This document shows positions 2,051 through 46,185 of a stretch of 64,000 bases of DNA, one piece after another. The notes below the pieces were generated by a model. The model was given only the letters and a program-made list of their open reading frames with translations, ran no database searches and was not told the DNA's origin. How positions within the stretch are numbered: the first letter of the stretch is position 1; each line of letters begins with the position of its first letter. Where the stretch lies: the NCBI RefSeq assembly GCF_003334335.1, contig NZ_QOWQ01000021.1; one strand, 5' to 3'. Position numbers and translations under genes: made by a program. Source of the DNA: Escherichia coli. GTDB taxonomy: Bacteria > Pseudomonadota > Gammaproteobacteria > Enterobacterales > Enterobacteriaceae.

Positions 2051-2082
2051 AAAAAAAGGCCCCTGTTGAAATTGCAGGGGCC
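2051..2082 (-). terminator. putative rho-independent terminator after cutC
   Basis: Inverted repeat ggcccctg...caggggcc preceded on the + strand by an A-run (T-run on the - strand), about 50 nt past the cutC stop. Confidence 0.55.
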
Positions 2083-2129
2083 TGGTACGAGCAAGCATCA
2101 TATTGGGCGACATGATGCAACGGTAAAAA

Positions 2130-2885
<756 letters not shown>

Positions 2886-2889
2886 TTAA

Positions 2890-3456
2890 TTACGCTGACT
2901 GCTCGCTGGCAACGATCTCTTCAATGGACCACGGATGAAACTTAATAGTTGTTTTGCCATCGGTGACCGCCAGCGTCGGATTCGGTAATCGCTCATGCTC
3001 ACCTTTTGGTGAACTGGTTTTAACTGAGATCCCCGGTAGGCTGAGTCCTTCATCAGAAAGCAATGCCAGCGCACGGGCATTCAGCGTTTCTGGATCACCC
3101 GGCAGAACGATTTCAATATGTTCCCAACCTTCGTGTGGGTAACGTTTTTCCCCGGGCCACGGTAGCTCCACAATAGAAAACTGCCAGTGCGCAACCTGTA
3201 CCGGTTCATGCAATTTAAACAGACAAATCGGTCTGCCATTGATCATATTTTCTGACAAAAGCTCGCCACACTGTTCAAACCCGCGACGCCAGCGTTCAGC
3301 AGTGGCGTTTTGATGGCAACGCAAAGAAATGTGATCGGCAGTCAGCGGAGTGATATTCAACCCCAGACGGAGGGAAAGTTCATCTAATGCGTGGGTAAAT
3401 CGCGGTAAATCCGATGCAATATCCTGCAGCTCGTCGATAGATTGCCAGTTCGCCAT
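2890..3456 (-). CDS. yecM: YecM, VOC/glyoxalase-fold protein
   Basis: Track ORF 2890..3462; the known protein starts at the second Met (MANWQSIDELQ...), 188 aa; flanked by cutC and argS. Confidence 0.88.
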   Translation of the reverse strand: MANWQSIDELQDIASDLPRFTHALDELSLRLGLNITPLTADHISLRCHQNATAERWRRGFEQCGELLSENMINGRPICLFKLHEPVQVAHWQFSIVELPWPGEKRYPHEGWEHIEIVLPGDPETLNARALALLSDEGLSLPGISVKTSSPKGEHERLPNPTLAVTDGKTTIKFHPWSIEEIVASEQSA

Positions 3457-3671
3457 AATCACTCTTCGTCTTTCAGTAAAAGCGTTAATTTACCCTGTTG
3501 CCCTGCGCCAACCAACCGCTGATTTCACGCCGCTTCTGATGCAATAGTGAAAACGGCAATACGCCACGCGCACGTTGCTGACGAAAACAGCCATTTGCAG
3601 TATACTCCCGCCCTAATTTCTTTAACTGGTGCGGGCAATTTTTGCTCGCTTCATCAATGTAAGGTATTCCG

Positions 3672-5405
3672 GTGAATATTCAGGCTCTTCTCTCAGAAAA
3701 AGTCCGTCAGGCCATGATTGCGGCAGGCGCGCCTGCGGATTGCGAACCGCAGGTTCGTCAGTCAGCAAAAGTTCAGTTCGGCGACTATCAGGCTAACGGC
3801 ATGATGGCAGTTGCTAAAAAACTGGGTATGGCACCGCGACAATTAGCAGAGCAGGTGCTGACTCATCTGGATCTTAACGGTATCGCCAGCAAAGTTGAGA
3901 TCGCCGGTCCAGGCTTTATCAACATTTTCCTTGATCCGGCATTCCTGGCTGAACATGTTCAGCAGGCGCTGGCGTCCGATCGTCTCGGTGTTTCTACGCC
4001 AGAAAAACAGACCATTGTGGTTGACTACTCTGCGCCAAACGTGGCGAAAGAGATGCATGTCGGTCACCTGCGCTCTACCATTATTGGTGACGCAGCAGTG
4101 CGTACTCTGGAGTTCCTCGGTCACAAAGTGATTCGCGCAAACCACGTCGGCGACTGGGGCACTCAGTTCGGTATGCTGATTGCATGGCTGGAAAAGCAGC
4201 AGCAGGAAAACGCCGGTGAAATGGAGCTGGCTGACCTTGAAGGTTTCTACCGCGATGCGAAAAAGCATTACGACGAAGATGAAGAGTTTGCCGAGCGTGC
4301 ACGTAACTACGTGGTAAAACTGCAAAGCGGTGACGAATATTTCCGCGAGATGTGGCGCAAACTGGTCGACATCACCATGACGCAGAACCAGATCACCTAC
4401 GATCGTCTCAACGTGACGCTGACCCGTGATGACGTGATGGGCGAAAGCCTCTACAACCCAATGCTGCCAGGAATTGTGGCGGATCTCAAAGCCAAAGGTC
4501 TGGCAGTAGAAAGCGAAGGGGCGACCGTCGTATTCCTTGATGAGTTTAAAAACAAGGAAGGCGAACCGATGGGCGTGATCATTCAGAAGAAAGATGGCGG
4601 CTATCTCTACACCACCACTGATATCGCCTGTGCGAAATATCGTTATGAAACACTGCATGCCGATCGCGTGCTGTATTACATCGACTCCCGTCAGCATCAA
4701 CACCTGATGCAGGCATGGGCGATCGTCCGTAAAGCAGGCTATGTACCGGAATCCGTACCGCTGGAACACCACATGTTCGGCATGATGCTGGGTAAAGACG
4801 GCAAACCGTTCAAAACCCGCGCGGGTGGTACAGTGAAACTGGCCGATCTGCTGGATGAAGCCCTGGAACGTGCACGCCGTCTGGTGGCAGAAAAGAACCC
4901 GGATATGCCAGCTGACGAGCTGGAAAAACTGGCTAACGCGGTTGGTATTGGTGCGGTGAAATATGCGGATCTCTCCAAAAACCGCACCACGGACTACATC
5001 TTCGACTGGGACAACATGCTGGCGTTTGAGGGTAATACCGCGCCATACATGCAGTATGCTTACACGCGTGTATTGTCCGTGTTCCGTAAGGCAGAAATTA
5101 ACGAAGAGCAACTGGCTGCAGCTCCGGTAATCATCCGTGAAGATCGTGAAGCGCAACTGGCAGCTCGCCTGCTGCAGTTTGAAGAAACCCTCACCGTGGT
5201 TGCCCGTGAAGGCACGCCGCATGTGATGTGTGCTTACCTGTACGATCTGGCTGGTCTGTTCTCTGGCTTCTACGAGCACTGCCCGATCCTCAGCGCAGAA
5301 AACGAAGAAGTGCGTAACAGCCGTCTGAAACTGGCACAACTGACAGCGAAGACGCTAAAGCTGGGTCTGGATACGCTGGGTATTGAGACAGTAGAGCGTA
5401 TGTAA
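3672..5405 (+). CDS. argS: arginine--tRNA ligase
   Basis: 577 aa ORF with class I aminoacyl-tRNA synthetase HIGH-type motif (HVGHLRS) and ArgRS-like sequence throughout; GTG start. Confidence 0.97.
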
Positions 5406-5424
5406 TCGATTTTTCGTGAGAGTA

Positions 5425-5460
5425 AAGCCTGATCAGGGTTACCTGATCAGGCTTTTTTAT
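5425..5460 (+). terminator. rho-independent terminator of argS
   Basis: Perfect hairpin agcctgatcagg / cctgatcaggct followed by T6, about 20 nt after the argS stop. Confidence 0.8.
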
Positions 5461-5581
5461 TGCCATCTAAATGTATTCTGAAAATGGACATGCCATTGTT
5501 TTCTGACTGTTGGATAAGAGGCCAGAAGCGTAATATCCGGCCCCAGGGAAACGATAACGGTTGAATTTAAGGAATACCGCA

Positions 5582-6070
5582 GTGTTTAAATTTCTTGTAT
5601 TAACATTAGGCATTATCTCTTGCCAGGCTTACGCAGAAGATACGGTTATAGTAAACGACCATGACATTTCAGCCATCAAAGATTGTTGGCAAAAAAATTC
5701 AGATGATGATACTGACATTAACGTGATCAAATCATGCCTGCGACAAGAATACAATCTCGTCGATGCGCAATTAAATAAAGCCTATGGTGAAGCTTATCGT
5801 TATATAGAACAAGTGCCACGCACAGGTGTAAAAAAACCTGATACCGAACAACTTAACTTGCTTAAAAAATCACAGCGAGCCTGGCTGGATTTTAGGGACA
5901 AAGAATGTGAATTAATCCTTTCAAATGAGGACGTTCAGGATTTAAGTGACCCTTATTCTGAATCAGAATGGCTCTCATGTATGATCATACAGACCAATAC
6001 GCGAACTCGCCAGTTGCAGCTATACCATAACTCTGAAGATTTTTATCCAAGCCCTTTGACAAGAGGATAA
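5582..6070 (+). CDS. yecT: YecT, secreted DUF1311-family protein
   Basis: Track ORF 5561..6070; a GTG at about 5582 preceded by aagga gives a 162 aa product with signal peptide VFKFLVLTLGIISCQAYA. Confidence 0.8.
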   Translation: MFKFLVLTLGIISCQAYAEDTVIVNDHDISAIKDCWQKNSDDDTDINVIKSCLRQEYNLVDAQLNKAYGEAYRYIEQVPRTGVKKPDTEQLNLLKKSQRAWLDFRDKECELILSNEDVQDLSDPYSESEWLSCMIIQTNTRTRQLQLYHNSEDFYPSPLTRG

Positions 6071-6189
6071 TTCACATCTTTTTGGCATGTTTTGTTGCAA
6101 GCTATTCCTGATAAATAATTGCAACAAGACATCGAGCCTTTTTCACTGAGTTATTAAACATACTCGCGAGCGCGTAATTTTTTTGTCCT

Positions 6190-6582
6190 TCAGCGATAAT
6201 TCACAATCACTTCATTACGTTGTACCTTTAGCGGTGGAATTAACCGCCCACCGCCTGGCACTTCCCAGATAAATCGCAACGGTTCTGCTGCCGCTATACC
6301 GGAAAAGGCCACGGTGGTTCCGCTCTGCCCCTCTAATTCGACACAACGAGATTGCGAACACAAGCGAACCCGCAGTCCTGAAGGTGTCGGGCCGATAAGC
6401 TGATAACGCCACGCTACCAGCGTCATCAATCCTGAAGCAGGTTGTCGCGTAGAAAGAGGCGCAGACGACATCGACTCACCGCGATGATTTAGCGTAATTC
6501 CTACACTACTTGCCTGCCACATCCCCTCCCCGGCGGCTTGCACCAGCAGCGGAAACAATAATATTGCTAATAAGGTTCTCAT
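6190..6582 (-). CDS. flhE: flagellar protein FlhE
   Basis: 130 aa ORF with signal peptide MRTLLAILLFPLLVQA; last gene of the flhBAE cluster. Confidence 0.92.
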   Translation of the reverse strand: MRTLLAILLFPLLVQAAGEGMWQASSVGITLNHRGESMSSAPLSTRQPASGLMTLVAWRYQLIGPTPSGLRVRLCSQSRCVELEGQSGTTVAFSGIAAAEPLRFIWEVPGGGRLIPPLKVQRNEVIVNYR

Positions 6583-34810: not shown

Positions 34811-35812
34811 TTACCCTCTATTGTCAAAGGGATTCAGTTCAACAGCAGCCTCTAAATGACCCGGCGCAAAGTGTGCATAACGCATAGTCATTTTTATATC
34901 GCTATGCCCCAGTATTTTTTGCAACACAAGAATATTTCCTCCCCGCATCATAAAATGGCTGGCAAACGTATGACGTAGCACATGAGTTAATTGTCCGTCA
35001 GGAAGTTCGATCTTTGCTCTCTTAATAGCGGCGTCAAAAGCCTCATAACATGGTGAAAAAAGCGCCCCGCGTTTTTTAGGAAGCATGGCCTGCAATTGAG
35101 GTGAAATAGGTACAGTGCGGTTCTTCTTTCCTTTGGTTTTAACAAATGTGATTCGTCCAGGCAGTATTTGAGATTGCTTTAATCCCTCTGCTTCACTCCA
35201 CCTGGCACCAGTCGCAAGCCCAATACGGACGACAACACCCAAATCTTTATTCCGTGACTCATCACATGCAATCAGAAGGCGTTCAATCTCATCTGCATAC
35301 AGAAACGCCTGTTCCTTTTCTTCCTCACGAAACTTGCGAATACCTGTCAATGGATTTTCACCAGACCACTCCCCAAGGCGCTTCAGTTCAGCAAAAACAG
35401 CATGTAAATATGACTGTTCGCGATTAACGGTTGCTTCACTAAGTTTTTTCTTCCCCTTTGGATTCCATTCACCTGATAACCGCCGCTCCCTGTAGATGGC
35501 AAACATATTTTTATCAAATTGAGAAGCAAACGGATCACCCAACCTAGAACAAATCGCCTCAAGTTTAGCCTTGCGCTCTTCACCGGAAGACAACGTTTTA
35601 CCGTACATTTCAAACCAGCGAGCAACCAACTCGGAAAGACGGGGGCCAGAACCATCCTGAAACTCGCCCCCTAAATTACCGTTCATTAAACGGCGCTCAT
35701 AAGAGAGCGCCTCACCTTTAGTAGCAAACTGCTTACGAATGCGTTTTCCTGCTGCTCCGTAGGGATAGCATTCACAGAGCCATTTACCAGTAGATAGTTT
35801 ACGAACAGACAT
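34811..35812 (-). CDS. int: P2-type tyrosine integrase
   Basis: Track ORF 34811..35887; start MSVRKLSTGKW aligns with the P2 Int N-terminus; catalytic R...HxxR...Y motifs (ATGARWSEA, HVLRHTFASH, MRYAHFAP). Confidence 0.9.
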   Translation of the reverse strand: MSVRKLSTGKWLCECYPYGAAGKRIRKQFATKGEALSYERRLMNGNLGGEFQDGSGPRLSELVARWFEMYGKTLSSGEERKAKLEAICSRLGDPFASQFDKNMFAIYRERRLSGEWNPKGKKKLSEATVNREQSYLHAVFAELKRLGEWSGENPLTGIRKFREEEKEQAFLYADEIERLLIACDESRNKDLGVVVRIGLATGARWSEAEGLKQSQILPGRITFVKTKGKKNRTVPISPQLQAMLPKKRGALFSPCYEAFDAAIKRAKIELPDGQLTHVLRHTFASHFMMRGGNILVLQKILGHSDIKMTMRYAHFAPGHLEAAVELNPFDNRG

Positions 35813-35846
35813 ATTAAAAAGTGCACACCAAGGAAAATTTTCGTGA

Positions 35847-36104
35847 TTAAGATGGTTGCTCAACCCGCATAAAGAGCTTTTCATCAACTAACTGCTCCCA
35901 TTCATCGGGATCAAGCTCCCAAGAAGGAGCCGACATATCATCCTCATCCCCCTCATTTACAAAAGTAACCAAATAGAAAGGAAGATCTCCGGGCTCATCG
36001 TCATCGTCCTTGACAATATGAACATTAGTAACAACTATACGATTAGATGGATTAACTTTAGATACATATAAACCAATTAATGGAATTTGCGGATTAGTTA
36101 CCAT
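35847..36104 (-). CDS. hypothetical highly acidic 85 aa protein (cargo between repressor and integrase)
   Basis: ATG with upstream agagg SD; product has runs of D/E (VKDDDDEPGDLPFYLVTFVNEGDEDDMSAPSWELDPDEWEQLVDE); no family recognised. Confidence 0.6.
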   Translation of the reverse strand: MVTNPQIPLIGLYVSKVNPSNRIVVTNVHIVKDDDDEPGDLPFYLVTFVNEGDEDDMSAPSWELDPDEWEQLVDEKLFMRVEQPS

Positions 36105-36302: not shown

Positions 36303-36947
36303 TCAGAAAAGAACACTGCCTAATAAAACACCAACAACGAAACACATTCCTGTTTCTTTCGGGTATTTTCTAATTATTTGCTGAAAATTCATCTGTAATT
36401 GACTACCGGCAGAATTGTTGGCAGTTAATTTCTTTTCTCCTTCCACTGATTGTTGGTCTAACCAGGAAAGAGCCATCTGAAGCTGAGAACGAGTAAGATC
36501 GTTTAAGCGACCCGTTCCGAAATTGATATGGCAATAGCGGATAAGTTTTTGACGAAGCACTCCATCTTCACTATTACGAAGTAAAATACTTACAAGCGCC
36601 TTACGCGCATCATGATCTTTACATCGTTCAAGCATCGCACACAGAAAGCTCTCTGCGGTCTTATATTGATTCATTGTTATATCATCAATACTGTCTACAC
36701 CAATCTCTGCATGCAATTTTTGCCAAATAATAAACGCCTCGGTATTGCTGGCATCTACAATAGCAGCAACTAATCTATTTAATGCCTTCCGTTGCCCCTT
36801 AAGTAAGGGGCGTGGATCACTGTTATTGCTCGAAGGAATTGCGATATTGACGGTATGAGAGCCATCATATCGCCCTATCTGAATATTCTTTTCTTGGTAA
36901 TCTCGCCCAGCAATACGATTATCTGAACCGTTTGAGTTGACCGTCAT
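36303..36947 (-). CDS. hypothetical 214 aa protein with C-terminal hydrophobic anchor (cargo between repressor and integrase)
   Basis: Long ORF with good SD (ggaggtgg before ATG), C-terminal TM-like tail MCFVVGVLLGSVLF; N-terminus shares NRIAGRDY motif with the upstream repressor C-terminus. Confidence 0.7.
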   Translation of the reverse strand: MTVNSNGSDNRIAGRDYQEKNIQIGRYDGSHTVNIAIPSSNNSDPRPLLKGQRKALNRLVAAIVDASNTEAFIIWQKLHAEIGVDSIDDITMNQYKTAESFLCAMLERCKDHDARKALVSILLRNSEDGVLRQKLIRYCHINFGTGRLNDLTRSQLQMALSWLDQQSVEGEKKLTANNSAGSQLQMNFQQIIRKYPKETGMCFVVGVLLGSVLF

Positions 36948-39302: not shown

Positions 39303-39527
39303 ATGAGAACAGTCGAATCACCCGCAACCGCCAGACCAGTTAACCATCATGCACATATCAGCATGGCCGCGAGAAAAGCCGAGCGTGCGCATATCTGCGA
39401 ATTGCTCCGAGACCTGGTTAACACGGCGAAAGAGAAGCACTCCTCCCCGCTGGAAACCTGTTCAGCCATTGAACGACTGATTGCAACGCTCACGAACAAC
39501 ACCGAACTGAAGGGGTCAGCGCAATGA
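39303..39527 (+). CDS. hypothetical protein, 74 aa
   Basis: Internal ATG of track ORF 39279..39527 preceded by aggag; stop overlaps the exonuclease start. Confidence 0.5.
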   Translation: MRTVESPATARPVNHHAHISMAARKAERAHICELLRDLVNTAKEKHSSPLETCSAIERLIATLTNNTELKGSAQ

Positions 39528-40105
39528 ACCATCTCATGATTGACACCGAAACACTGGGTAACGGACCGGACGCAGCCATATTCGCGATCGGGGCGGTGTT
39601 TTTCGACCCGTTCACCGGAAAGCTGGGCAAGCAGTTTGAGAAATTCATCGACCCGGTAGATTCAGAACGCAACGGCGGAACCGTCAATGCAGCCACCGCT
39701 GTATGGTGGGCCGGACAATCCGTGGAGGCCAGATCCTGCCTGCGCAACGCAGAGGGAACAGAGCTTGCGGCAGTAACCGAATTTCTGGCGTTCATTTCAC
39801 GCAATATGCATGACGAAAGCACGGGCAATTCACTGACCATATGGTGTAAGGGCGCATCCTTCGATTTCCCGATCCTGAAATCCGCCATAACACGCACAGC
39901 CGGAGAAAAAAGCATCCCCTGGTGCTACTGGAACGAGCGCTGTATGCGCCCGCTTATCGCCATGGCTGAATCAACTGGATGGAAAATGCCAGGCAGATCA
40001 GGAAAAGAGGCCATTGCTCACACCGCGCTGGGCGACGCCATTTACCAGGCAAAGGTCGTGTCAGAAATCTGGCAGCGCTTCACAACACCATTCCTGAACA
40101 TATGA
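39524..40105 (+). CDS. DnaQ-like 3-prime-5-prime exonuclease (DEDDh family)
   Basis: 193 aa; Exo I motif MIDTETLG and Exo III motif HTALGDA. Confidence 0.75.
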   Translation: MNHLMIDTETLGNGPDAAIFAIGAVFFDPFTGKLGKQFEKFIDPVDSERNGGTVNAATAVWWAGQSVEARSCLRNAEGTELAAVTEFLAFISRNMHDESTGNSLTIWCKGASFDFPILKSAITRTAGEKSIPWCYWNERCMRPLIAMAESTGWKMPGRSGKEAIAHTALGDAIYQAKVVSEIWQRFTTPFLNI

Positions 40106-40338
40106 GGTGAAGCCATGGTCGCCATCCTGAATGTGTGTTGCTGCCCCCCCCTGAACGTGGAAAGAAAAGCCCGCGCATCGCTGCGTTTATTCCGCGACGG
40201 CGTGCGGAATTTTTCACGCATAAAACCCCACGACTACCTGGTAATAAGAATCGGTTTCCGCTGGCGATTACTGAGCAAAAACAACGGGGCGTCATGGGAT
40301 TTATTAACGCACGAAACCTATAACAAAGAGGCCGCGTT

Positions 40339-41319
40339 ATGAGCAAAGAACTGTTATCCGGTACGCCACTGAAATGGGTGGGCGGAAAAAGCCGCATCAT
40401 GAACACACTGAAGGCGCACCTGCCAGAAGCCGACTGTCTGGTTGAGCCGTTCGTGGGCGGCGCATCGGTATTCATGAACACCAGTTACAAGCGTTACATC
40501 CTGGGTGATTCCAATGGTGCGCTGATTAATTTCTACCGGCAAGCTAGGGACAACACCGACAGCCTGATCGACGAGGCGAAAACCCTGTTCCTGAACCACA
40601 ACAACAGGGGTGACTATCTCATCATTCGCGAAACCTTTAACGCAGAGAATCATGCCTTCCTGAACAGCAGAACGGGAATAAGCGACCGCCGTGAACTGCG
40701 ACTGGCCGCCATGTTTTTGTACCTGAACCGACACAGCTTTAACGGTTTGTTCCGCGTGAACGGAAAAGGCGATTTTAACGTGCCTTTCGGCTGCTACCGC
40801 AAGCCCTACTTCCCTGAGCGTGAAATCCGCGCATTTGCAGACAAGGCAAACAGCACCCGAACGCTGCTTATCCACGCAGATTTTAAGGATACGCTGAACT
40901 CTGCCAGTCACCTGTTCGGCATGGGCAACACGCTTTGCGTGTACTGCGATCCCCCTTACCTGCAATTCAGTGGCCGGGACAATTTTACCGCCTACGGAAA
41001 ACCATTCGATGAAGACGAGCACGTTCGTCTGAGGGCAGCGCTTGACCGCCTTTCACAGGAAACGGGCGGCATGACCAGCATCACCATCTCCAATTCCGAC
41101 ACACCGGAAACACGACGCATTTATCGGGGTTACCGGATGAACTGCATACAGGCACCACGAAGCGTTGGCGCAAGAACCCGGGAATCAGCACCGGAGGTTA
41201 TCGCCACCCTGAGACAGTGCGACGCCTGCGGTCACCATGGCGGTGGCTACTGCCCGGACTGCGGACCTGTAACGGGAGATGCAACTTACAGCGTGATGTT
41301 TACCCCTGCCAGTACGTGA
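40339..41319 (+). CDS. Dam-family DNA N6-adenine methyltransferase with C-terminal Cys-rich extension
   Basis: 326 aa; FxGxG SAM motif (VEPFVGGASVF) and catalytic DPPY; C-terminus CDACGHHGGGYCPDCGP looks like a zinc ribbon. Confidence 0.85.
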   Translation: MSKELLSGTPLKWVGGKSRIMNTLKAHLPEADCLVEPFVGGASVFMNTSYKRYILGDSNGALINFYRQARDNTDSLIDEAKTLFLNHNNRGDYLIIRETFNAENHAFLNSRTGISDRRELRLAAMFLYLNRHSFNGLFRVNGKGDFNVPFGCYRKPYFPEREIRAFADKANSTRTLLIHADFKDTLNSASHLFGMGNTLCVYCDPPYLQFSGRDNFTAYGKPFDEDEHVRLRAALDRLSQETGGMTSITISNSDTPETRRIYRGYRMNCIQAPRSVGARTRESAPEVIATLRQCDACGHHGGGYCPDCGPVTGDATYSVMFTPAST

Positions 41320-41591: not shown

Positions 41592-41806
41592 TCCAGGAAT
41601 CAACCGTTATCCGGTTCACAGCCAACGGCCGTCAGTACGAGGTAGACGAAGCCCTGATTGATTACAGCATGACCCGCCAGAGCTCACGCTTTCAGGACAT
41701 GTACCACATCCGGCTAATCAACGGTTCGTCTTTCAACGCCACAAACGTGGAAGAAGTACGCGTGCTGACAGCAACACGCAACACGGGAGGTAAAGCGTGG
41801 CAGTGA
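41588..41806 (+). CDS. hypothetical protein, 72 aa
   Basis: Track ORF overlapping neighbours by a few nt, indicating translational coupling. Confidence 0.45.
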   Translation: MIQESTVIRFTANGRQYEVDEALIDYSMTRQSSRFQDMYHIRLINGSSFNATNVEEVRVLTATRNTGGKAWQ

Positions 41807-42147
41807 TTTATATCGCCGGCCCCATGACCGGATACGAAGACTGCAATAGAACGGCGTTTTGCCTGGAGGATCTGAAGCTTCGGTGCGCCGGAAACATCGT
41901 TCTTAATCCTGCCGTACTGCCTGACGGATTAAGCCAGCAGCAGTACATGAGTATTTGTATTCCGATGCTCATGTGTGCCGATGCCATTTACTTACTGGAT
42001 GGATGGGAAGAATCCGCTGGCGCACGGGCTGAGTACGCAATGGCGCTCAAACTGAACATGCCAGTGTCATTCCCGGAAAACCGGGCAGCCGTCGAAACCG
42101 TCGCGCAGCTGCTTCACAAATCAAAAGCCACACAGGCGACTGAGTAA
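41797..42147 (+). CDS. DUF4406 / nucleoside 2-deoxyribosyltransferase-like protein
   Basis: 116 aa; VIYIAGPMTG ... LLDGWEESAGARAEYAMALKLNMPV resembles the small Rossmann-like DUF4406 family common in prophages. Confidence 0.6.
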   Translation: MAVIYIAGPMTGYEDCNRTAFCLEDLKLRCAGNIVLNPAVLPDGLSQQQYMSICIPMLMCADAIYLLDGWEESAGARAEYAMALKLNMPVSFPENRAAVETVAQLLHKSKATQATE

Positions 42148-42585
42148 CCGACCGGAGATCGAAACATGATTGCGCGAAGAGCTGCCAACCGCCTCACAGG
42201 CTTTATTCCAGGCAAGGTTGATCATGCACTCCATCACGGCGCTGTCACTTTCCTCAACAAAGGAGAGGCGCGCAATCATGCATTCTGGGGTGAGCACGTG
42301 GCGCTGGCTAATCAGTCTTTGATAGCTAAGCGCCTGCCATTCAGCCTTTTCAGCTCTGATAGAAAGAGAGGCAGCCATGACCTGCCACACCAGAAAGAGC
42401 ACCACACTGGCGAAAACAAACGTTGCGCTGTCGCAAAAAATGAATGCGGCAACAATCGCAAGGAAAGCGCTAATCCTCAGAACCAAGGAAGCGCGACGGT
42501 GGAGAAGGCTTGTCATGTGTTCAAGCCAGTAGCTGTACCACAGGTCAAAAAGAATTTCGTAATCAGAAGGGAGCTTATCACTCAT
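42121..42585 (-). CDS. hypothetical membrane protein (about 154 aa, 2 TM) encoded antisense to the early operon
   Basis: Track ORF 42121..42768; first ATG at 42585 gives MSDKLPSDYEILFDLWYSYWLEHM... with two hydrophobic helices; its 3-prime end overlaps the DUF4406 gene convergently by about 27 nt. Confidence 0.55.
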   Translation of the reverse strand: MSDKLPSDYEILFDLWYSYWLEHMTSLLHRRASLVLRISAFLAIVAAFIFCDSATFVFASVVLFLVWQVMAASLSIRAEKAEWQALSYQRLISQRHVLTPECMIARLSFVEESDSAVMECMINLAWNKACEAVGSSSRNHVSISGRLLSRLCGF

Positions 42586-42765
42586 CAGAAACACCCCGCG
42601 TATGCAGACAATCACCAGTTGCCAGGTGATATTAATTCGCAACATTCTAACCACATCAGCACGCAACACAAAAACCGCTTGCCAGCGCTCGTCGTGTCGG
42701 GTTACATTTCCGCTGCACCTCATAAAACGGGTGCCGGGATTTCCACCCCGCTGACAAACGAAGCG

Positions 42766-42790
42766 CACAGCCGCGCCAGCGGTTTTTTTG
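42766..42790 (+). terminator. terminator-like hairpin plus T-run in non-coding gap
   Basis: ccgc-gcca-gcgg followed by ttttttt. Confidence 0.35.
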
Positions 42791-43258
42791 TGCGTACTGT
42801 ATCGCCACGTCTTTTTCGCGTCAGAATTATGGCGGGGCGTACAGGGCCGACTTCGGTCGGGCCGGTTTCTTCGTTTGCCGGTTGTGGAAACCCTGTACGT
42901 CTCGCCACCCTGAGTTTTCCACCTCTGGTTGGTGAGTTTTCAAAATTCACAAACGAAGAGGCCACACCATGGCAAACCGCAAGCAACAGCGCGCCCGCGC
43001 TGAGCGTCTTCACATCCACAGCGAAATCAACCGCAGACTTTTCCGCGCAACACGCGTCGCGCAAATCATGCATATCAACATGCTGCATGAGCGCACGCAC
43101 GCACTATCAAACCGTTACTGCGCTGCCGTCTTCAGCTATCTGGCCGAAGACCTGGCAGAACTGCAAAGCCTCATCAACCAGCACCGATAAACCACATCCG
43201 GAAGCTATCCCACACCTGCACGCGGGAGGCTTCCGCACATCTGTTACCGGAGGTTCTC

Positions 43259-43675
43259 ATGAAGAGCGTTAAGGGACTTTCAGATATTCAGGACTTTTTT
43301 AACTGGATGTGGGCGGAGGATCCCCTGCTGGCTTCCCGCCTGAACGACTGGCACGACTGTTACCGTCGCGCCTGTAAACAGGCTGCCCGCAGCGTCACCA
43401 CATACGGGGATTTCTCCTTCACCGTTGACGATCGTTACCGCGTGGACGTGAAAGGTGATGGTGATGGCTTTGGTTTATTTCACATCAACGGCATCGACAG
43501 CACCACCATCAGCTGGTCGTCATCAGAGATGGCGCTTGTGCTGGAGATGACAAACCACAGCGTGGCCGTGAAAGGTATATACACCGCAGAAGACTTTATC
43601 GGTGAATACCAGCGCCTTCTCATGCTGTACCGCGCGGCGTTTCAGGCGGCAACTGCCGGGGAGTGCGACGCATGA
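43259..43675 (+). CDS. hypothetical protein, 138 aa (upstream of A; B/orf-equivalent position)
   Basis: Track ORF; stop overlaps the start of gene A (ATGA). Confidence 0.55.
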   Translation: MKSVKGLSDIQDFFNWMWAEDPLLASRLNDWHDCYRRACKQAARSVTTYGDFSFTVDDRYRVDVKGDGDGFGLFHINGIDSTTISWSSSEMALVLEMTNHSVAVKGIYTAEDFIGEYQRLLMLYRAAFQAATAGECDA

Positions 43676-46185
43676 GCGACCATAACGCACAACTGGCGTA
43701 CCCGTGGAACGCCCCGCTGCAAGTTATCGATCCTGAAACGTTCGGCAGAGCGCAACCAACCGCATTACGCCAGGTCATTCAGAGCTACATCAACGAAGAC
43801 ATTCGCATTGATGCCAGACTAGATGAAGAAACCGTCGCCTTCCTGACAAACACAGACGAAGGCAAGCGAATTAATTTGCATCTTCACCGCGACGAAGAGC
43901 GTCGGATCAGACTGGAAAAAGTGGTGCGGCGCAAACGCGAATATCCGCCCACGCTGGTATCGAAAGCCATGGCAGAACTTCGCGCCCTGCCCTCGTTTCT
44001 TGGTAACGCGCTCATTCGTGATCTGGCGCGTTTAAACCGCAAACAGCAAAGCGCCCGCCATGAAGGCGTGAAAAACAACAATACACACGTGGCTGATAAC
44101 TTTGTTCGCCGTGGACTGCGCACACGCCTGAAACGCATCGAACAGGTGAATGAACGCTTCGCCACGACAGCATTCAAAGCCACCGCAGCGCGTCATCGCC
44201 TTGATGAATTACTCATGCTGCCACAACTCAACCGTGATCAAATTCAGCGCCTTGCCACACTAACGGCGGCGGCATTTTCCACCGAACTGGAACGCATATG
44301 TGATGAAGTTACTGAGCGGACAGGAAAAGGTGACGATAACCTGTTCACCTGGTTGCTGACTTACCAGCAGCTGGCGCGCATGGCGTTAAAACTGGGCGTG
44401 ACCCCACCATACTGGCCGTCACTCGAGATCAGACGTGACCGCCGCACGGCACCAGACCCTGAACTGGTACCGGGTGCGGTAATGCGTATCACCTGCGCCA
44501 CCTGGTGGAACAACCAGCTGCGCCACCTCGCAGATCTCTGGCGGGAGGAATTACTGCGTGCCGCCGGAAGAGTATCGCGCAAGGCATCCCCCTACATCAG
44601 TCATGAGTCACTCCAGGAATTCCGGGAGAAACGCCAGCGCACCCGTGATTTTCTCAAAAGCTGGGACATTGAAAACGAAGACGGTGAACGCCTGAGTCTG
44701 GAGGACGTGTACTGGTCAGGGCTGGGGAATCCGCGCAACCGCCGCAACGAGATGATGGCCTGCGTCAGAGGGATGGAACAGGTCGCCGAATCGCGTGGTG
44801 ACTCCGCGTTCTTCGTGACAGTAACCTGCCCTTCCCGCTTTCACAGCGTGAACGAGGACGGCAGCCTGAACCCGAAATACAACGGTGCCACCGTGCGCGA
44901 TGCCAGTGATTATCTGGTTTACGACGTCTTTGCAGCTGCAAGAAAAAAACTCAACAAAGAAGGCCTGAGCTGGTACGGGGTGCGCACCGTTGAGCCACAC
45001 CATGACGGCACACCACACTGGCACATGCTAGTATTCACTTCCCCGGACAATGAAGAACGCATCATTGAAATCATGCGTGACGCAGCAATCAAATCAGATC
45101 GCGCAGAACTGGGGAATGATATTTCTCCGCGCTTCAAGTGCGAAAAAATCGACCCGGCAAAAGGCACACCGGCAAGCTACATCGCAACCTATATCGGCAA
45201 GAACCTGGACACCAGCACCTTCCATAACAATGACCCGAAAACCGGCAAACCTTACGCCGATAAAGAATCGGGAAAAACCATGGCGGAAACCGTGGAAAAC
45301 GCCATTGCCTGGGCGAGTCTCCATCGCATCCGTCAGTTCCAGTTCTTCGGAATCCCGCCCCGCCAGGTATGGCGTGAACTCCGCCGCCTTGCCGGACAGA
45401 TGGAGCGCAACCCCGCATCACCGAAGCGCCTGGACCATGACGACATTGACGCCATTCTGGCCGCCGCTGACGTGGGGTGTTTTGCCACCTACATCAACCG
45501 TCAGGGCGGCGTGCTCATTCCACGCAACCTGTACCTGATCCGCACCGCATACGAAACCGCAGATGAGGCCAATGATTACGGGGAATTTCCTCAACGTATC
45601 TGGGGAATATGCGCCCCGTCGCTCGGCGAGCGCTACACCATCTGTACCCATCCGGACGAATGGAAACTGGTCAGAAAAGAAGCGAAAACCGACAACAGCA
45701 CGGACGAGGATTTTGACGTTGGGGGCGGCTTCGCCGCACCTTGGACTCGTGGCAATAACTGTCCCCATGATGAAAAAACAGACACCGGAGAGGGTAAAAC
45801 CCCACCACCGGAAACCAGGAAAGAACAAAAACTGGTCGTCCCGGGAGGTGATTTGGGTGAGTGGTTAAGGTCACTGACCCCCACAGAGCGAAAACAACTC
45901 ACCAGGCAGCTGAAAGATGCGCCATCTGACACAAAAACCGTGAAAACCGGCGGCCCCACCACGCCCGATGACGTCATACATGTGCGTACAGCATTGCCGC
46001 TGACTGACGTCACCACCACCGTAATCAAGTCGGCACTGAGCGCGACGGGCGAGGAGCTACACAGTGGCGCAGCACTTTCCGTACACAGAGGTGCACGCGT
46101 TCGCCTGCCTGACGGGCGGATTGTGCACTGGGATGAGAAATCACGAAGCCTGGTGGCAGCAGATCAACCGGAGGTGAACCCATGA
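43672..46185 (+). CDS. A: rolling-circle replication initiator endonuclease (P2 gpA family)
   Basis: Track ORF 43663..46185; HUH-type motif HWHMLVF and twin-tyrosine motif ASYIATYIGKN as in P2 A. Confidence 0.88.
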   Translation: MSDHNAQLAYPWNAPLQVIDPETFGRAQPTALRQVIQSYINEDIRIDARLDEETVAFLTNTDEGKRINLHLHRDEERRIRLEKVVRRKREYPPTLVSKAMAELRALPSFLGNALIRDLARLNRKQQSARHEGVKNNNTHVADNFVRRGLRTRLKRIEQVNERFATTAFKATAARHRLDELLMLPQLNRDQIQRLATLTAAAFSTELERICDEVTERTGKGDDNLFTWLLTYQQLARMALKLGVTPPYWPSLEIRRDRRTAPDPELVPGAVMRITCATWWNNQLRHLADLWREELLRAAGRVSRKASPYISHESLQEFREKRQRTRDFLKSWDIENEDGERLSLEDVYWSGLGNPRNRRNEMMACVRGMEQVAESRGDSAFFVTVTCPSRFHSVNEDGSLNPKYNGATVRDASDYLVYDVFAAARKKLNKEGLSWYGVRTVEPHHDGTPHWHMLVFTSPDNEERIIEIMRDAAIKSDRAELGNDISPRFKCEKIDPAKGTPASYIATYIGKNLDTSTFHNNDPKTGKPYADKESGKTMAETVENAIAWASLHRIRQFQFFGIPPRQVWRELRRLAGQMERNPASPKRLDHDDIDAILAAADVGCFATYINRQGGVLIPRNLYLIRTAYETADEANDYGEFPQRIWGICAPSLGERYTICTHPDEWKLVRKEAKTDNSTDEDFDVGGGFAAPWTRGNNCPHDEKTDTGEGKTPPPETRKEQKLVVPGGDLGEWLRSLTPTERKQLTRQLKDAPSDTKTVKTGGPTTPDDVIHVRTALPLTDVTTTVIKSALSATGEELHSGAALSVHRGARVRLPDGRIVHWDEKSRSLVAADQPEVNP

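Follow-up and report, generated by a model that had tools for sequence, protein, structure and literature searches.

The window analysed here, a 64,000-nucleotide (nt) stretch of Escherichia coli DNA (NCBI RefSeq assembly GCF_003334335.1, contig NZ_QOWQ01000021.1), includes the early region of a P2-like prophage, in which the genes from a 3'-5' exonuclease gene through that for the P2 gpA-type replication endonuclease all lie on the plus strand, and an open reading frame (ORF) at positions 42121 to 42585 runs the other way. An initial annotation had singled out this minus-strand ORF among the rightward genes, and in that respect it was correct. As set out below, the ORF is a gene of a phage family, its product is modelled with a fold like that of the SLATT/DUF4231 effectors, which have two transmembrane (TM) segments and, in the case of SLATT, form pores in bacterial immunity, it appears to be carried as an accessory cassette, and in P2-like phages the strand opposite it is free, or nearly free, of stop codons. 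The features on which the argument turns are the following.

42121-42585, minus strand: gene for a two-TM protein, SLATT-like by predicted fold; 154 amino acids (aa), 465-nt coding sequence (CDS), ATG at 42585, PHROG 6315
42121-42147, both strands: convergent 3'-end overlap of the SLATT-like gene and the DUF4406 gene, 27 nt
42361-42486, minus strand: TM helical hairpin, residues 34-51 and 56-75 joined by the turn CDSAT, from hydropathy, alignments and an AlphaFold2 model
42586-42665, minus strand: allele-specific 5' region of the cassette, with a Shine-Dalgarno-like GGGGTG (42592-42597), a palindrome (42611-42630) and a -10-like TAGAAT (42644-42649)
42644-42671, minus strand: candidate sigma-70 promoter TTGTGT-16-TAGAAT, 58 nt upstream of the SLATT-like gene, by consensus match
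42166-43272, plus strand (that of the early operon): stop-free "bridge" ORF of 368 aa, its frame open from 42148

RefSeq annotation by PGAP calls exactly the same 465-nt CDS in related E. coli prophages, as a hypothetical protein. The convergent overlap with the end of the DUF4406 gene that the initial annotation had reported is present: codon 147 (TTA) of the SLATT-like gene is the complement of the DUF4406 TAA stop codon, and the E. coli relatives show 2 variable sites within these 27 nt. When eight E. coli relatives were aligned to the window, variable sites in the rest of the ORF (42148 to 42585) numbered 49, 31 and 16 at minus-frame codon positions 3, 1 and 2, respectively, and for a divergent allele the ratio of nonsynonymous to synonymous substitution rates (dN/dS, by the Nei-Gojobori method) was 0.20 in the minus frame (dS 0.73) and 1.16 in the plus frame. 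In tblastn searches, the minus-frame protein scored 61 to 81 bits with Fels-2, with Yersinia phage vB_YenM_42.18 and with a further E. coli prophage, as against 0 to 44 bits for the plus-frame translation of the same DNA. The minus-strand ORF is unbroken in all nine aligned loci, and Shine-Dalgarno motifs precede the start codon in nearly all of the 15 family members examined. Longer versions beginning at upstream GTG or ATG codons (215 and 174 aa) were rejected, because family members are 151 to 174 aa long and start within a few residues of M1. Since these relatives align from residue 1, and since the DNA upstream (42586 to 42714) varies among the eight relatives without codon-position bias, we take the ATG at 42585 to be the right start. 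The excess of changes at position 3, the minus-frame dN/dS and the minus-frame homology speak against an ORF that arose by chance, and together they show it to be a real gene that, judged by its pattern of variation, is maintained by selection.

The protein matches PHROG 6315, a family whose function is annotated as unknown, with an E value of 2.8e-65. A HMMER scan of 1.84 billion representative proteins returned 26 clusters in all, nearly all of 150 to 175 aa, and defines a phage-only family. The residues conserved across it are F13, Y17, E22, R31, A81, Q84, Y88, L91, D114, S115, A125 and A129, and its motifs are F..(Y)SY.LE in the N-terminal helix, RR.D ahead of TM1, A..Q...Y..L behind TM2, E..DS and NPA.N.A. 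In the alignments the TM hairpin is the most variable part of the protein. Hydropathy gives a single continuous hydrophobic stretch that can be resolved into two helices, at residues 34-51 and 56-75, and an AlphaFold2 model places a helical hairpin there, so that the two hydrophobic helices read from the sequence in the initial annotation are upheld. Basic residues flank the hairpin on both cytoplasmic sides (HRRAS before it and IRAEK after it), and the positive-inside rule predicts an N-in/C-in topology, with an N-terminal cytoplasmic helix, a tight TM hairpin and about 75 cytoplasmic helical residues. Hydropathy and modelling together show the product to be a small, predicted inner-membrane protein.

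The AlphaFold2 model, built with a 20-sequence family alignment, has a predicted local distance difference test (pLDDT) score of 93.4 and a predicted template modelling (pTM) score of 0.85, and consists of a long hairpin (residues 8-50 and 54-93) followed by three short helices, the TM segment forming the middle stretch of the two long helices. A Foldseek search of AFDB50 with this model gave 56 matches at E <= 0.001. The protein's own family ranks first, and outside it most of the named matches are annotated as SLATT or DUF4231 two-TM effectors, which align at full length (143 to 164 aligned columns) with TMq 0.7 to 0.84 and E values of 1e-6 to 6e-4; the comparison is between predicted models on both sides, as no solved SLATT structure was found to compare. 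Sequence profiles gave fainter signals. Five of 10 relatives had sub-threshold NCBIfam matches to SLATT_4 or SLATT_1 over the same segment (12 to 20 bits against cutoffs of 41 to 55), the sole Pfam match of the window protein was to DUF6239 (E 0.0016), and a profile search of 5.8 billion proteins with the family alignment found no member with a SLATT Pfam domain. Compared with the SLATT families as curated (Pfam SLATT_1-5, SLATT_fungal and DUF4231; NCBIfam NF033632, NF033634 and others), the protein has their hairpin architecture at about 130 to 200 aa and resembles them in three dimensions, and it has neither a match to a curated sequence model nor a conserved partner that makes a nucleotide or a nucleic acid. 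Because the curated sequence models failed to recognise it, we do not file it as a member of the superfamily; it is SLATT-like by modelled fold.

The gene comes and goes between related phages. It is absent from phage P88 and from the JNEC-KY172 prophage, and in P88 and many prophages the adjacent DNA, which carries genes for the small RNA (sRNA) isrK, a C4-type antisense RNA and a "derepression protein", is present without it. Some part of positions 41700 to 43300 is matched in 1,228 of 5,426 complete E. coli genomes, mostly the portion with isrK, C4 and the derepression gene, and 25 genomes match at least 80% of it; most of the roughly 1,200 genomes with the adjacent DNA lack the gene. Where the slot is occupied, the coding part is either 99% or about 79% identical to the window in nucleotides, between flanks that are 85 to 100% identical, and a third allele at the same slot (locus L011; relatives without a familiar name are given here by such locus numbers) has about 35% protein identity to that of the window. 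Alignment of the upstream regions puts the right-hand boundary of the cassette near 42660, a short way to the left of the isrK promoter. The 80-nt 5' region (42586 to 42665) is 99 to 100% identical in all eight relatives, even in those whose coding part is 79% identical, and it contains, between the putative -10 element and the start codon, a perfect 6-bp inverted repeat (ATCACC-N8-GGTGAT, 42611 to 42630) that could be an operator or an RNA hairpin. The initial annotation had proposed that the ORF is a moron, an independently acquired accessory cassette, and had suggested comparing the junction in related prophages. The divergent alleles at one slot between conserved flanks, the absence from P88 and the antisense contexts described below all support that proposal, and the comparison shows a cassette of one accessory gene that temperate phages carry.

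All the relatives that we inspected lie in phage contexts, and most are opposite in strand to their neighbours. The gene is opposite to both flanks in at least 10 contexts: the window, L011, L012, Fels-2, the Yersinia phage, L017, L026, L022, L023 and L024. Several of these are P2-like early regions, with the gene after fil in Fels-2, before gpB in the Yersinia phage, beside the derepression gene and gpA in L012, and after cII in L026, and L017 is of this kind too; L023 is a Mu-like late region, and L022 and L024 are lambdoid or other operons. Two contexts are exceptions in orientation, L018, where the gene sits in an island between terminase and portal genes and points the same way as the terminase gene, and L025, where it lies at the junction of two oppositely oriented gene blocks. 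The convergent or adjoining neighbours vary among the fourteen contexts (DUF4406, MarR-like, Fil-like, cII, Dam and uncharacterised genes), and adjacency to DUF4406 is limited to the E. coli P88-like lineage. No isrK or C4 gene was found near the family members in Fels-2, the Yersinia phage, L015, L017 and L018; a functional link to isrK and C4 as a general rule was ruled out, since the adjacency occurs only in E. coli P88-like prophages. In the deposited sequences of Fels-2 (L003, NC_010463) and the Yersinia phage (L004, OM046624), the annotated CDSs STM2733.1 (3390-3794) and vBYenM4218_008 (3309-3974) are unconstrained ORFs on the other strand, and in both the SLATT-like gene itself is unannotated. 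Literature searches on STM2734, on opposite-strand morons of P2-like phages and on DUF4406 brought up nothing on this gene and nothing else of relevance.

The candidate leftward promoter stands back to back with the isrK promoter that a promoter scan identified (-35 TTGCCA, 42679-42684). Ahead of a 39%-identical allele in L012, TTGTGT-16-TATAAT occurs at the same position and with the same spacing, and this shared TTGTGT-16 element is suggestive of a promoter for the SLATT-like gene; no comparable element was found in several other family members.

The strand opposite the gene has a property of its own. In the register of the bridge ORF, codon position 2 faces codon position 2 of the SLATT-like gene, and stops in this complementary frame arise from the sense codons TTA, CTA and TCA only. 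These codons are missing from the first 140 codons of the gene in the window, L002, L011, L012, L015, L017, the Yersinia phage and L026, and one occurs in Fels-2. From the codon usage of neighbouring genes, 2.5 to 10.6 such codons would be expected per gene; summed over eight independent P2-like loci (the window, L011, L012, L015, L017, Fels-2, the Yersinia phage and L026), 1 was observed against about 47 expected, and in L026 alone there were 0 against 10.6. Codons ending in A are otherwise of normal frequency, making up 19% in four-fold families and 50 to 70% for Lys, Glu and Gln, as against 1 of 165 in the Leu and TCN codons. Stops occur at the expected rate in five contexts that are not P2-like (lambdoid, Mu-like and unclassified), where the observed and expected numbers were 2 and 4.6, 4 and 3.7, 7 and 2.3, 2 and 4.1, and 13 and 6.2. 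The bridge ORF begins at an ATG (42166) that has GGAG 9 nt upstream and lies 19 nt past the DUF4406 stop codon in the same frame as DUF4406; it takes in the SLATT-like gene, isrK, C4 and the derepression gene, and its end lies 14 nt beyond the ATG (43259) with which the following early gene opens. The open frame starts directly behind the early gene that precedes it, and in the window, L011, L012 and L026 it ends 4 to 14 nt past the start of the next gene.

The amino acids encoded in this frame are, on the other hand, conserved no further than expected if synonymous codons were drawn at random for the SLATT-like gene, in line with the plus-frame dN/dS of about 1.16; we looked for conservation of a plus-strand protein in excess of that imposed by the minus frame and found none, and the translation has no Pfam match and, over the SLATT-like part, no PHROG family. 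Because stops are depleted and amino acids are not conserved, it appears that openness is selected and the product is not. The initial annotation had set the long plus-strand ORF aside as implausible, a judgement that holds for its amino acids and fails for its openness, which is strongly nonrandom in P2-like phages.

What could select for a frame that can be read, without a product? One answer is that, during lytic growth, the plus-strand ORF (42166-43272) would be translated to keep ribosomes on the early mRNA, averting Rho-dependent polarity over some 800 nt that hold no plus-strand gene; its translation could also aid read-through of the isrK terminator and translational coupling to the next early gene. 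The early operons of P2-like phages are not known to have an antitermination system and are Rho sensitive, and lambdoid early transcripts are antiterminated, so that lambdoid phages would escape the constraint. It may accordingly be that P2-like phages tolerate an antisense insert only if its complement can be translated, with selection purging TTA, CTA and TCA and so sparing the replication gene from polarity, a proposal that we make tentatively and to which we give somewhat less than an even chance. It fits the stop counts in both kinds of context, the normal use of other A-ending codons, the lack of amino acid constraint, the bounds of the frame and the GGAG ahead of the ATG, and it has a precedent in the same kind of module, orf45 of Gifsy-1, whose nucleotides are conserved and whose amino acids are not, and whose translation is needed for coupling to anrP (PMC4825925). 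Its basis is, however, entirely computational. The depletion of stops is significant over the SLATT-like gene only, selection for an open frame across the derepression gene having been tried and found not significant (P 0.11 to 0.41); openness over isrK and C4 could follow from conservation of the RNA sequences alone; and in L015, which may be a prophage remnant, the frame is open though no phage gene follows. That ribosomes cross the insert on the early mRNA is a doubtful but reasonable supposition, one that complements the explanation given next and does not exclude it.

Two loci without a SLATT-like gene, L020 (2954-3610) and L021 (2496-3533), have a plus frame that is likewise open from the preceding early gene to just past the next start; it crosses isrK, C4 and the derepression gene and, in L021, is fused in frame to the phrog_3237 gene.

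Taken together, the observations are explained jointly if the ORF is a real antisense cassette with a SLATT-like fold that encodes a membrane effector expressed in the lysogen and shut off by early transcription, its complementary frame being kept open for ribosomes; we put the probability of this explanation at about 55%. The gene would be transcribed leftward from its own promoter, back to back with that of isrK, while the early operon of the prophage is silent, and its product would permeabilise or depolarise the membrane, protecting the lysogen by abortive infection or superinfection exclusion. The antisense placement would then provide immunity for the phage itself: firing of the early promoter would silence the effector through convergent transcription and antisense RNA, and in P2-like phages the open complement would let ribosomes cross the insert on the early mRNA toward the derepression gene and gpA. 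There are precedents for the parts, in that such a role at the membrane in defence has been proposed for SLATT proteins in DRT10 (bioRxiv 10.64898/2026.04.29.721553) and in the TIR-SLATT pairs of phages (PMC9503650), and for channel effectors such as HalA (PMC13276650).

Several results weigh against this explanation. Characterised SLATT effectors work with a partner that produces a signal (reverse transcriptase, TIR or CD-NTase), and in the fourteen contexts inspected there is no conserved partner gene and no reverse transcriptase, TIR or CD-NTase gene. No SLATT family was found in Pfam at E <= 10 for the window protein and 20 relatives, NCBIfam returned nothing for the window protein and, for the relatives, matches far under the cutoffs, and solved structures matched as generic helical hairpins, none of them specific. 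PADLOC (PADLOC-DB v2, E <= 1) gave no family for the SLATT-like, DUF4406, derepression or phrog_3237 proteins. The promoter-like elements are weak (8 of 12 positions) and limited to the lineage of the window, L002 and L012, and an intrinsic terminator for the minus-strand gene was ruled out, since shuffled sequence folds as well as the terminator-like hairpin at its 3' end (z 0.13). Finally, the dN/dS of 0.2 indicates what looks like ordinary purifying selection rather than the positive selection that is frequent in arms-race genes.

Known systems resemble the cassette in part. Like the SLATT/DUF4231 two-TM effectors, the product has about 150 to 170 aa, a two-TM hairpin between cytoplasmic helices and a prophage location, with full-length matches of predicted structure at TMq 0.7 to 0.84 and weak SLATT_4 and SLATT_1 signals in relatives; unlike them, the window protein falls under the Pfam and NCBIfam thresholds, has no conserved reverse transcriptase, TIR, CD-NTase or SLOG partner and is encoded by a single gene inserted antisense in phage operons. 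HK97 gp15, P22 SieA and T4 Imm are membrane proteins that exclude other phages. The cassette shares with such exclusion morons a small inner-membrane product, polymorphism of presence and absence, and an orientation and putative promoter independent of the surrounding operon, but no similarity of sequence or profile to annotated exclusion proteins was detected in PHROGs or PADLOC, and its fold suggests a pore or effector rather than a blocker of injection. With Hailong HalA and other depolarising effectors of abortive infection the product shares the way in which it is proposed to act, as a small membrane protein that, when triggered, makes the membrane potential collapse (PMC13276650), yet the window protein matches nothing in PADLOC and no solved structure, and no HalB-like nucleotidyltransferase lies nearby. 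The cassette also adjoins a module of isrK, C4 and a small derepression gene, as in isrK-orf45-anrP of Gifsy-1 and c4-icd-ant of P1 immI, although those modules do not include the SLATT-like gene.

If the protein instead served the lytic cycle, as a holin or antiholin, as an inhibitor of host division or replication of the 186 Fil/Dhr type, or as an early block to superinfection, then a small two-TM product in the early region under ordinary purifying selection would be expected, and the Fels-2 and L026 copies do sit where 186-type phages carry host-takeover genes of the fil/dhr type. The orientation speaks against it: in most contexts (L018 and L025 excepted) early and late operons run against the gene, so that its product would not be made from their transcripts. 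Moreover, it is dispensable, being absent from P88 and many relatives, and it is not in a lysis cassette, since it lies in the early region with no endolysin or spanin gene nearby; no holin family matched in Pfam or PHROGs. Given the orientation, we consider a lytic-cycle function unlikely.

Slightly less probable still is that DUF4406, whose Rossmannoid fold is TIR/SLOG-like, produces or degrades a nucleotide signal by which a SLATT-like pore is gated. The two genes overlap at their 3' ends, the order DUF4406 then SLATT-like gene is kept in nine of nine related E. coli prophage loci with either of two very different alleles, and SLATT proteins are by definition tied to SLOG or SMODS enzymes, phage TIR-SLATT pairs being known (PMC9503650). 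However, the two would not be expressed together, since DUF4406 is part of the early lytic operon, which is read from the other strand, neither gene has a PADLOC match, and the co-occurrence in E. coli may reflect one prophage lineage. A conserved pair as a general rule was ruled out by the unrelated convergent neighbours elsewhere (MarR-like, Fil-like, cII, Dam and others), which leaves a two-gene system in the E. coli P88-like lineage only as a possibility.

That the plus-strand ORF is the true gene, as depositors called it in Fels-2 and the Yersinia phage, with the minus-strand ORF as its shadow, suits operon spacing and the open frame of all P2-like copies, but this is very improbable and largely refuted by the plus-frame dN/dS of 1.16 against 0.20, a similarity at the level of random synonymous codons, the much lower tblastn scores, the absence of a Pfam match and of a PHROG family over the SLATT-like part, the pLDDT 93 model, recognisable fold and conserved Shine-Dalgarno sequences of the minus frame, and the occurrence of the family where the complement is closed.

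There is nothing unusual in a prophage moron that runs backwards, and the gene had already been annotated as hypothetical; what is new is that PHROG 6315 is assigned a SLATT-like fold, that its gene is deployed alone and antisense in phages of several types, and that the complement is stop-free in a lineage-specific way. The fold supplies a structural and functional lead, toward a SLATT-like pore or effector, for a family listed as unknown or hypothetical in PHROGs, Pfam and RefSeq, and two reference phage genomes are seen to annotate its locus on the wrong strand. A SLATT-like gene that stands alone, on prophages of the P2-like, Mu-like and lambdoid kinds, would broaden the ways in which SLATT effectors are known to be deployed, and it is an inexpensive candidate for prophage-encoded defence or superinfection exclusion. 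The stop-free complement makes it possible to test how operons with coupled transcription and translation accept backwards genes; should the translation proposal hold, the insertion of genes into phage operons would be subject to a constraint of a new kind, with strand-symmetric maintenance of an ORF without protein function. It is also a warning for annotators that a long conserved ORF may be open and yet meaningless as protein.

The surrounding genes of the window are these.

39524-40105, plus strand: 3'-5' exonuclease, an early gene
40115-40342, plus strand: ParE-like ORF of 75 aa, PGAP "ParE family toxin-like protein" in relatives, PHROG 1525 (function annotated as unknown)
40339-41319, plus strand: Dam methylase, followed by two small plus-strand ORFs
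41797-42147, plus strand: DUF4406 (nucleoside 2-deoxyribosyltransferase-like; PHROG 355/5781 and PGAP name), the convergent neighbour
42715-42789, plus strand: isrK sRNA gene (Rfam RF01394, 64.1 bits, gathering cutoff 50), the divergent neighbour of the cassette
42825-42912, plus strand: C4-type antisense RNA gene (Rfam RF01695, 82.1 bits, gathering cutoff 45)
42969-43190, plus strand: "derepression protein" gene, 73 aa (PHROG 3688 and PGAP name), putatively C4 controlled
43259-43675, plus strand: phrog_3237 gene, the next early gene
43663-46185, plus strand: P2 gpA-type replication endonuclease

The SLATT-like gene is thus at the junction of the upstream early genes with the module of isrK sRNA, C4 antisense RNA and derepression protein. 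The initial annotation had placed it within the early replication operon, which is right insofar as all its neighbours run rightward and inexact as to the site; it had also overlooked the SLATT-like fold and the adjoining isrK and C4 RNA genes. The isrK gene contains a site like an intrinsic terminator (42769-42784) followed by a T-run, and variation in the derepression gene among the eight relatives is biased to position 3 (2, 6 and 23 variable sites at positions 1, 2 and 3). Over its loop region (42868-42891), C4 has 75% complementarity to 42936-42959, which shortly precedes the start codon of the derepression gene, and the 10-mer ACAAACGAAG is present twice, in isrK (42754-42763) and at 42949-42958. 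As this 10-mer stands in both isrK and the derepression leader, C4 could pair with both, and IsrK could therefore compete for C4. The arrangement suggests control of an antirepressor in the manner of P1 immI or Gifsy-1 isrK, here apparently in a P2-like phage.

Several minor observations concern the same region. The plus-strand ORF that starts at 42166 has, over its residues 164-288 (window positions 42655-43030), matches to the PHROG families 821, 995, 6928, 3960 and 29966 of transcriptional regulators and repressors, and in L021 PGAP labels the equivalent stretch an "ash family protein" pseudogene; such PHROG families overlying isrK and C4 may have been built from translated conserved RNA DNA or from coupling ORFs like orf45. 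In L001 (NZ_CP060083), the module of isrK, C4 and the derepression gene is tandemly duplicated right after the SLATT-like gene (4990-5570 and 5741-6318, 92.6% identical). The ParE-like ORF, between the exonuclease and Dam genes, has no evident antitoxin adjoining it. On the minus strand, a 214-aa ORF (36303-36947) is separated by a few hundred nt from the integrase gene (34811-35887), which shares its strand, and occupies about the place at which one would look for a CI-type repressor; its matches are to PHROG 5825 (function annotated as unknown) and, more weakly, to the "membrane protein" moron family phrog_6521, rather than to a repressor family. The host sRNA genes MicL (2051-2358, minus strand) and C0465 (16349-16426, plus strand) are as expected if the DNA left of the prophage is chromosome of the E. 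coli type.

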